Source: Escherichia coli | GTDB lineage: Bacteria; Pseudomonadota; Gammaproteobacteria; Enterobacterales; Enterobacteriaceae | Reading direction: 5' to 3' (one strand) | DNA length: 47,554 bases | NCBI RefSeq assembly: GCF_003334385.1 | Contig: NZ_QOWN01000034.1 | Part shown: piece by piece, positions 41,367 through 42,170 of the stretch | Layout: every line of letters begins with the position of its first letter | Numbering within the stretch: the stretch's first letter is position 1 | Translations under genes and position numbers: made by a program | The notes under the pieces: model-generated | Told to the model about the DNA's origin: nothing | Databases searched by the model: none | The model's input: the letters and a program-made list of their open reading frames with translations, nothing else

Positions 41367-42170
41367 TGCCGGATGCGGCCTACGGTTCGGCACAGACTTG
41401 TAGGCATGATAAGACGCGTCCAGCGTCGCATCAGGCATTGTGCGCCAACTGCCGGATGCGGCGTGAACGCCTTATCCGGCCTACGGTTCGGCACAAACCT
41501 GTAGGCCTGATAAGACGCGACAAGCGTCGCATCAGGCATTATGCGCCGACTGCCGGATGCGGCGTGAACGCCTTATCCGGCCTACGGTTCGGCACAGACT
41601 TGTAGGCATGATAAGACGCGACAAGCGTCGCATCAGGCATTGTGCGCCAACTGCCGGATGCGGCGTAAACGCCTTATCCGGCCTACGGTTCGGCACAGAC
41701 TTGTAGGCATGATAAGACGCGTCAAGCGTCGCATCAGGCATTGTGCGCCAACTGCCGGATGCGGCGTGAACGCCTTATCCGGCCTACGGTTCGGCACAAA
41801 CCTGTAGGCCTGATAAGACGCGACAAGCGTCGCATCAGGCATTATGCGCCGACTGCCGGATGCGGCGTGAACGCCTTATCCGGCCTACGGTTCGGCACAG
41901 ACTTGTAGGCATGATAAGACGCGACAAGCGTCGCATCAGGCATTGTGCGCCAACTGCCGGATGCGGCGTAAACGCCTTATCCGGCCTACGGTTCGGCACA
42001 GACTTGTAGGCATGATAAGACGCGTCAAGCGTCGCATCAGGCATTGTGCGCCAACTGCCGGATGCGGCGTGAACGCCTTATCCGGCCTACGGTTCGGCAC
42101 AAACCTGTAGGCATGATAAGACGCGACAAGCGTCGCATCAGGCATTATGCGCCGACTGCCGGATGCTGCC
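41367..42170. repeat. Tandem BIME/REP array, about eight 101-bp units with a 303-bp higher-order repeat
   Basis: The motif GCCGGATGCGGCG recurs at 41451, 41552, 41653, 41754, 41855, 41956, 42057 and 42158 (period 101). Each unit is a Y-type REP, an 18-bp linker, an inverted Z-type REP and a 13-bp linker. Three unit variants cycle with a 303-bp period. Confidence 0.9.

Follow-up and report, generated by a model that had tools for sequence, protein, structure and literature searches.

Bacterial interspersed mosaic elements (BIMEs) are assembled from repetitive extragenic palindromic (REP) sequences, and two of their classes are relevant here. BIME-2 elements comprise y and z2 REPs in tandem copies with short variable linkers and a strain-dependent copy number, while BIME-1 elements comprise z1 and y REPs in a single copy with an L linker that carries a site for integration host factor (IHF) (PMC3333891). 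Two clusters of Escherichia coli K-12 provide the closest described systems. The cluster between yjjV and yjjW is catalogued under its EcoCyc name as REP352a-h (bioRxiv 10.1101/2024.07.17.603846), and REP325, with six Y + Z2 units, is the cluster upon which the naRNA4 family was built (PMC4550694). We have analyzed a 47,554-nt stretch of E. coli DNA (the window), which is the whole of contig QOWN01000034.1 of draft assembly GCA_003334385.1, and within it a REP array at 41368-42173 occupying the spacer that separates the stop codons of the convergent genes yjjW (+) and yjjV (-). The array is very probably a BIME-2 and an allele of K-12 REP352, expanded in the window, and its 101-bp units are ordered into a 303-bp super-period.

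REPs were located by consensus matching, with Rfam and by RNA folding. The array contains seven full Y REPs on the + strand (41451-41484, 41552-41585, 41653-41686, 41754-41787, 41855-41888, 41956-41989 and 42057-42090), each with at most one mismatch to the Y consensus, and eight Z2 REPs on the - strand (41400-41436, 41501-41537, 41602-41638, 41703-41739, 41804-41840, 41905-41941, 42006-42042 and 42107-42143), each with at most two mismatches to the array's own Z2 sequence. That sequence differs at two positions from the Z2 of REP325; it is called z2 by homology to that cluster, following the naming in PMC4550694. The REPs are separated by linkers of 12 nt where they lie head-to-head and 16 nt where they lie tail-to-tail. 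Their stems are short and mismatched, and a search for inverted repeats (seed 9, minimum length 14, distance up to 120) found none in the array. Tandem Repeats Finder places a single tandem array at 41376-42166, with a period of 101, 7.8 copies, 95% matches, no indels and a score of 1442. An earlier note on this DNA had described the spacer of convergent yjjW and yjjV as holding about eight 101-bp units, each a Y REP with an inverted Z REP, and this description is fully borne out.

Each end of the array is formed by a collapsed Y REP. At the left (41368-41383, +) it reads GCCGGATG joined to CGGCCTAC, the central 18 nt being missing, and it begins 3 nt past the yjjW stop codon; strain 30602_1#64 retains a full Y REP in this position. 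At the right (42158-42173, +) it reads GCCGGATG joined to CTGCCTAC and lies 10 nt from the yjjV stop codon (42184-42186). The gene to the left is yjjW (40501-41364, +), encoding a glycyl-radical enzyme activase, and that to the right is yjjV (42184-42966, -), encoding a TatD-family metal-dependent hydrolase; the 3′ ends of both adjoin the array.

The units are not equivalent. When the array is aligned with itself the identity is 98.4% at a shift of 303, compared with 94.5% at 202 and 94.3% at 101, and it falls to only 20-27% at the out-of-register shifts of 50, 51, 100 and 102. In terms of whole units, pairs three apart differ on average at 0.25 sites, against 4.6-5.0 sites for those one, two or four apart. 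The self-alignment thus supports the 101- and 303-bp periodicity that the earlier note had claimed, and the three variants it had described as cycling are recovered here in a different register, with the order B′ C A B C A B C′. Unit 1 (41376-41476, +) is variant B′, with T44 and C46. It is followed by unit 2 (41477-41577, +), variant C, with A20, C23, C31, A65 and G72; unit 3 (41578-41678, +), variant A, with A90; and unit 4 (41679-41779, +), variant B, with T44. Units 5-7 (41780-42082, +) repeat the series C-A-B as an extra 303-bp block that is a copy of 41477-41779, with no differences between the two. The final unit 8 (42083-42166, +) is variant C′, with A20, C23, A65 and G72 but without C31, and is truncated at position 84. 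The longest exact repeat in the array is 388 nt, at a shift of 303 (41422-41809).

The array belongs to the BIME-2 class because its Z REPs are Z2. The other features of that class are also present: y and z2 REPs alternate in inverted orientation, the copies are in tandem with short linkers, there is no L linker or IHF site, the location is extragenic at the 3′ ends of genes, and strains differ in copy number, with 0 to 5.8 units in the sample of about 112 complete genomes while the linkers remain constant. In two checks that could have overturned the assignment the array held, since the REPs are of Y and Z2 type and the locus is orthologous to the K-12 yjjV-yjjW spacer. RNA corresponding to one unit is predicted to fold into two stable hairpins whichever strand is transcribed (folding z of -4.5 and -5.1). 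The array also belongs to the naRNA4 family (Rfam RF02564, gathering score 59.5) by its curated gathering score, as a match of sequence and structure. On the - strand there are seven matches of 74.2-83.7 bits, each covering model positions 1-77 of 77, and on the + strand two matches of 61.0 bits. The seven form consecutive segments of 79 nt (Z2, linker, Y) over 41403-42087, from 41403-41481 to 42009-42087, and their sense strand is the strand of yjjV.

REP clusters in general have been cited as binding IHF, and the earlier note had extended this to the present array. It is most improbable that the array is a BIME-1 or RIP-type element recruiting IHF. The IHF site maps to the L linker of BIME-1, where z1 and y are present in a single copy (PMC3333891), whereas here z2 and y are repeated in tandem, and the linkers between them measure 12 and 16 nt. 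On neither strand of the array was there a match to the IHF consensus WATCAANNNNTTR when up to one mismatch was allowed. We have therefore rejected the BIME-1 assignment, and IHF binding is not supported.

Comparison with K-12 MG1655 shows how closely the array corresponds to REP352. The locus is orthologous, and the flanking genes, the 101-bp unit, the linkers and the left junction are all shared. The differences are in length and at the right end. REP352 has 3.8 units with eight REPs, compared with 7.8 units in the window, and it lacks the three-unit super-period; its last REP is a full Y that overlaps the stop codon of yjjV, where the window has the collapsed Y REP. REP325, between yjdM and yjdN of K-12, is similarly built from head-to-tail Y + Z2 pairs with a period of about 100 bp and near-identical REP sequences, and each unit of both arrays is a full-length match to the naRNA4 covariance model. 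It differs in its locus and its linkers, has a period of 100 bp and an 81% unit identity to the array, and is set between tandem genes of one operon rather than convergent genes. Furthermore, REP325 has no marked higher-order register, its self-identity being 97.5-98.5% at every shift. Nothing essential separates the array from the BIME-2 family as defined by Bachellier, Gilson and Hofnung and summarized by Ton-Hoang et al. in 2012 (PMC3333891); the ordered three-unit block structure is a detail that the BIME-2 papers reviewed do not mention.

The number of units was surveyed in two evenly spread samples, each of 60, drawn from the complete RefSeq E. coli genomes and together giving about 112 distinct genomes. 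The 60 best matches to the locus were also examined, and allele-specific queries of 97 and 400 nt were run against 5,426 complete genomes. Array length could not be ranked over all 5,426 because BLAST joins offset pieces, so that coverage and identity do not track copy number. The locus is general in E. coli and its length varies in steps of about 101 bp. In the sample of about 112, no units were present in 3 genomes, 0.8 units in 27, 1.8 in 22, 2.8 in 10, 3.8 (the K-12 class) in 13, 4.8 in 38 and 5.8 in a single genome, while 6.8 or more units were found in none. Unit-by-unit alignment of 20 loci confirmed these classes. Some partial matches on the right side had the appearance of larger arrays and were rejected, since all four that were fetched proved to be ordinary 4.8-unit arrays, and the effect is an artefact of BLAST joining.

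Individual genomes illustrate how the locus can change. The complete genome AHM8C212RI (NZ_CP104613.1) has a 204-bp super-period of two units, in which 101- and 103-bp units alternate and units 2 and 4 are identical; this is an independent block duplication at the same locus. Two arrays of 5.8 units were found. In the draft GCA_001911225.1 (LRLL01000065.1) the extra unit has the G72 variant only, which suggests the gain of a single unit that is a recombinant, and the complete genome CFS3313 has a different unit order. At the other extreme, TUM14759 (NZ_CP128877.1) has an 'empty' allele, in which a 48-nt spacer holds one collapsed Y REP, GCCGGATGTGGCCTAC, and the left lead of the window is fused directly to its right tail. 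This is either the ancestral site or the result of a complete deletion between the terminal direct repeats. A scan of species representatives with the locus-specific linker gave matches in two Escherichia sp. genomes only, showing the linker to be confined to that genus. At the same yjjW-yjjV locus the cryptic-clade genome Escherichia sp. MOD1-EC7003 (NZ_PTRE01000059.1) has an 1,133-bp array of 11 diverged units. These are 96-102 nt in length and differ from one another at 2-12 sites, with no clear higher-order register, and the array is an older, larger version of the one studied here. Large arrays are therefore biologically possible at this locus. The strain-variable copy number expected in the earlier note is confirmed, with 0 to 5.8 units in the E. 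coli sample and 11 in the cryptic Escherichia.

The origin of the super-period can be approached through the nearest relatives. All of the 60 nearest complete genomes (99.8-99.9% identity, resembling ATCC 8739) are exactly 303 bp shorter at the locus. The ATCC 8739-type array has the order B′ C A B C′ and agrees with the window at every variant base, so that the window array is the ATCC 8739-type array with one C-A-B block added. The shorter type is present in about 206 complete genomes, identified at 99% or greater identity with the 400-nt query, and the three-unit register exists already within it: units 1 and 4 differ at one site, and neighboring units (one or two apart) at about five. One in-register three-unit block event is certainly old and real, and common to these genomes, because in the 4.8-unit array unit 1 already resembles unit 4 and unit 2 resembles unit 5. 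A consideration on the other side is that gene conversion between units, instead of duplication, could have been the source of the older register. Growth by blocks recurs at the locus. The earlier note had deduced a recent amplification of a three-unit block by unequal recombination, and this stands in part. There is exactly one extra block relative to the nearest relatives, but 'amplification' overstates what would be at most two events; the older register is already present in about 206 complete genomes, and the newer exact copy is putative.

We propose that the array would lengthen and shorten by misaligned pairing among its own units, either in unequal sister-chromatid exchange or through replication slippage. 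In the lineage of the window such pairing would have used a three-unit register, generating one old event and then one further identical C-A-B block. There is a likeness to the higher-order repeats that arise by unequal exchange, for example in satellite DNA, in that blocks resemble one another more than neighboring units do, and growth in the best-matching register favors that register further. The array differs in being tiny, with no more than 2.6 blocks and at most two events, one of them putative. The alternative that the array was built by RayT (TnpA-REP), a tyrosine transposase acting by cleavage and strand transfer or by rolling-circle copying, is unlikely. TnpA-REP does cleave and recombine BIMEs in vitro, and local BIME amplification has been proposed in models (PMC3333891); E. 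coli genomes carry rayT, as seen in the annotation of one sampled genome. These models, however, add one BIME per step or many copies of a single excised BIME, whereas the block in the window contains three different units in order. It has no altered linker or novel junction, as expected for homologous misalignment. In addition, circular intermediates were not found for REP352 or the other clusters in a study of mobilome DNA (bioRxiv 10.1101/2024.07.17.603846), and no rayT is present in the window, as judged from the genes mapped in the collinear region of ATCC 8739, so that this is not a REPtron. Homologous misalignment is the better fit because what has been gained is three different units in their original order, joined without any new linker.

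Whether the second C-A-B block (41780-42082) exists in the bacterium is a separate question. We judge it somewhat probable that the block is an assembly artefact and that the true allele is B′ C A B C′ with 4.8 units. The window is a contig of a draft assembly, and the two alleles share identical k-mer sets for k from 31 to 86. The k-mer comparison shows that the 7.8-unit allele has just one sequence that the 4.8-unit allele lacks, a new 87-mer (41724-41810, +) in which A46 of unit B is joined to C31 of a full C unit. Exact repeats inside the 4.8-unit allele reach 85 nt at a shift of 303 but do not exceed 54 nt at shifts of 101 and 202. A second pass around a 303-bp loop in an assembly graph with k of 86 or less would therefore reproduce the window base for base.

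Several further observations weigh against a real expansion. The near-clonal sister draft GCA_002190145.1 has 4.8 units, and has no differences from the window in 6,386 + 2,327 (8,713) nt of flanking sequence. The 400-mer at 41416-41815 has no exact match in the 5,426 complete genomes, where the best match is 399/400, and the expanded form occurs in none of the about 206 with the B′ C A B C′ array type. The locus is evidently hard to assemble, because five other contigs with the same YjjI variant stop inside the first units of the array. The earlier note had warned of assembly errors in arrays of this kind, and that warning was apt. A 97-nt query spanning the B-to-C junction did have exact matches in 17 complete genomes. 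We have rejected these as evidence of expansion, since all six that were fetched correspond to the junction of units 1 and 2 in ordinary arrays of 3.8-4.8 units; the first unit of such arrays is without C46, and hence they give no sign of expansion.

There is nevertheless a serious possibility, to which we give rather less weight, that the block is real, the product of an in-register tandem duplication that occurred very recently in this isolate or sub-clone. Unequal sister-chromatid exchange or slippage, with B′-C paired with B-C′ 303 bp away, would yield just this product, as expected from the best-matching register (at a shift of 303, an exact match over 85 nt and 99% identity over about 200 nt). 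The two copies have no differences and therefore the event would be recent. The diagnostic junction has also been assembled in another project. A 69-amino acid open reading frame (ORF) across it is on record from one other assembly, GCA_001911985.1, whose 928-bp contig LGMF01000014.1, common to three samples, is 100% identical to the window at 40950-41877. The junction lies within this contig, which has no possible placement in an allele of 4.8 units. It provides independent support, though the same wrong turn in a graph would yield the same contig. Assemblers collapse tandem repeats more often than they expand them, and this too counts against an artefact. Moreover, the length of the locus changes often (0 to 5.8 units, the latter in CFS3313 and GCA_001911225.1), and block duplications are real in complete genomes here, the two-unit block of AHM8C212RI being an example. 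A perfect tandem repeat of 388 nt should be unstable, however, and so would be expected to be short-lived. Sequence alone cannot separate duplication from loop error for the newest block. The broader proposal, that a BIME-2 array changes in length by several units at once, as complete blocks, over the time scale of a clone, with no substitutions in 8.7 kb of flanking sequence, is offered only tentatively.

Turning to function, by homology with BIME-2 arrays that have been studied we infer that the array may bind gyrase, act as an insulator and stabilize mRNA, as the earlier note had suggested. Gyrase cleavage is strongly enriched in BIME-2 arrays, more at y than at z2 REPs, and is independent of transcription (PMC6379681). 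BIME-2 arrays have also been implicated in supercoiling, as barriers that limit its spread. REP325 has been described as a local, partly Rho-dependent terminator that stabilizes the upstream mRNA, and not as a compactor of the chromosome, and REPs located between convergent genes accompany higher expression of both genes (bioRxiv 10.64898/2026.03.23.713779). A scan of both strands of the yjjW-yjjV spacer found no terminator-like hairpin followed by a T run, and thus the array is the only structured element between the two converging transcription units. The transcript of each strand would contain a run of stable hairpins lacking a U-tract within the 3′ untranslated regions (UTRs) of yjjW and yjjV. 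These would block 3′-exonucleases, and would partially attenuate read-through into the opposing gene, assisted by Rho. Read-through from yjjW (+) or from yjjV (-, the naRNA4 sense) would meet 15 hairpins in each case. At the level of DNA, the Y REPs would be preferred sites of gyrase cleavage, making the array a supercoil sink or barrier between the converging units.

Two observations count against this functional reading. REP effects are context-dependent, and terminal REPs are not generally tied to longer mRNA half-lives (bioRxiv 10.64898/2026.03.23.713779). The gyrase cleavage-site supplement, taken as text, contains no mention of yjjV or yjjW; yjdM is likewise unmentioned. In a separate study, exonuclease-treated 'mobilome' DNA prepared under sodium dodecyl sulfate (SDS) and copper stress showed raised coverage of eight REP clusters, REP352 among them; its authors reported no circular junctions and suggested protection by bound protein (bioRxiv 10.1101/2024.07.17.603846).

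The seven full-length naRNA4 matches above the gathering score raise another possibility, that the array is chiefly a cluster of genes for nucleoid-associated RNA that condenses the chromosome together with HU. This was the original model for REP325 (PMC4550694), and we consider it very unlikely to apply here. The Rfam match reflects only the shared Z2-linker-Y architecture. In a re-analysis of REP325 dated 2026, whose authors include the original group, neither deletion nor over-expression changed nucleoid volume, REP-REP contacts were neither seen nor dependent upon HU, and REP325 was reassigned to local control in the 3′ UTR (bioRxiv 10.64898/2026.03.23.713779). Nor does the array have any promoter-like excess over shuffled sequence; the sigma-70 promoter-like matches at its right edge (42172-42144 and 42242-42214, -) do not rise above that level. 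On the basis of the REP325 re-analysis we have rejected nucleoid RNA as the main function of the array.

The array contains four overlapping 69-amino acid ORFs with ATG start codons (41532-42145, -), of which that at 41936-42145 (-) is annotated as a gene in the draft. Near-identical 'proteins' are present in public databases from more than 100 contigs, labeled as hypothetical proteins, and one UniRef entry carries the name 'Mannitol-1-phosphate 5-dehydrogenase'. These ORFs are almost certainly annotation noise from REP arrays.

Other REPs are found elsewhere in the window. A single BIME-2-type pair lies in the spacer between convergent yjjX and trpR, where a full-length naRNA4 match of 77.4 bits (23894-23971, +) accompanies a Y REP at 23891-23924 (-). 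A small cluster (28221-28370) is situated between ettA and the nadS remnant/nadR and comprises two Y REPs (28221-28254 and 28337-28370) and one naRNA4 match (28289-28367, -). In the spacer of the convergent pair yaaA and yaaX, a perfect Y REP (9798-9831) directly abuts a match to Rfam ES036/CssrF (9832-9874) of 38.8 bits, just over the gathering score, and this 'sRNA' match may be the partner REP of a BIME. Two other Rfam matches, both expected, are those to the Thr operon leader (15157-15276, -; 122 bits) and to tpke11 in the dnaK-dnaJ spacer (1300-1377, -; 69.6 bits). Relative to K-12 the window is in reverse orientation, extending from dnaJ via thrLABC to prfC and across the coordinate origin. 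The last ~60 nt of the contig, to the window end at 47554, are unaligned in most E. coli genomes. At about 46946-47189 the best-matching genome, ETEC1706, has an annotated DinI-like gene in place of the yjjG of ATCC 8739. A prophage or island inserted beside prfC probably forms the end of the contig.

The element is already known, as REP352 of the BIME-2 family with strain-variable copy number (PMC3333891). The biological import of the present analysis is small, since BIME-2 arrays, their roles in gyrase action and 3′ UTRs, and their variation in copy number have been described since the 1990s. What the locus provides is a clean example of an array changing through the gain of an in-register block, and not by the addition of single units. 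It also shows that array length in short-read assemblies is not to be trusted, with alleles having the same k-mers to k = 86 and many contigs breaking at the locus; the reads need to be checked before REP-array length is used for typing or taken to show recent evolution. ORFs within the array generate spurious 'hypothetical protein' entries in databases. If the newest block is real, the perfect repeat of 388 nt would make further gains and losses of 303 bp still likelier, and the array would be a self-reinforcing, fast-changing length variant in the common 3′ region of yjjV and yjjW. The number of hairpins and the number of gyrase sites could then be altered without touching the coding sequence.

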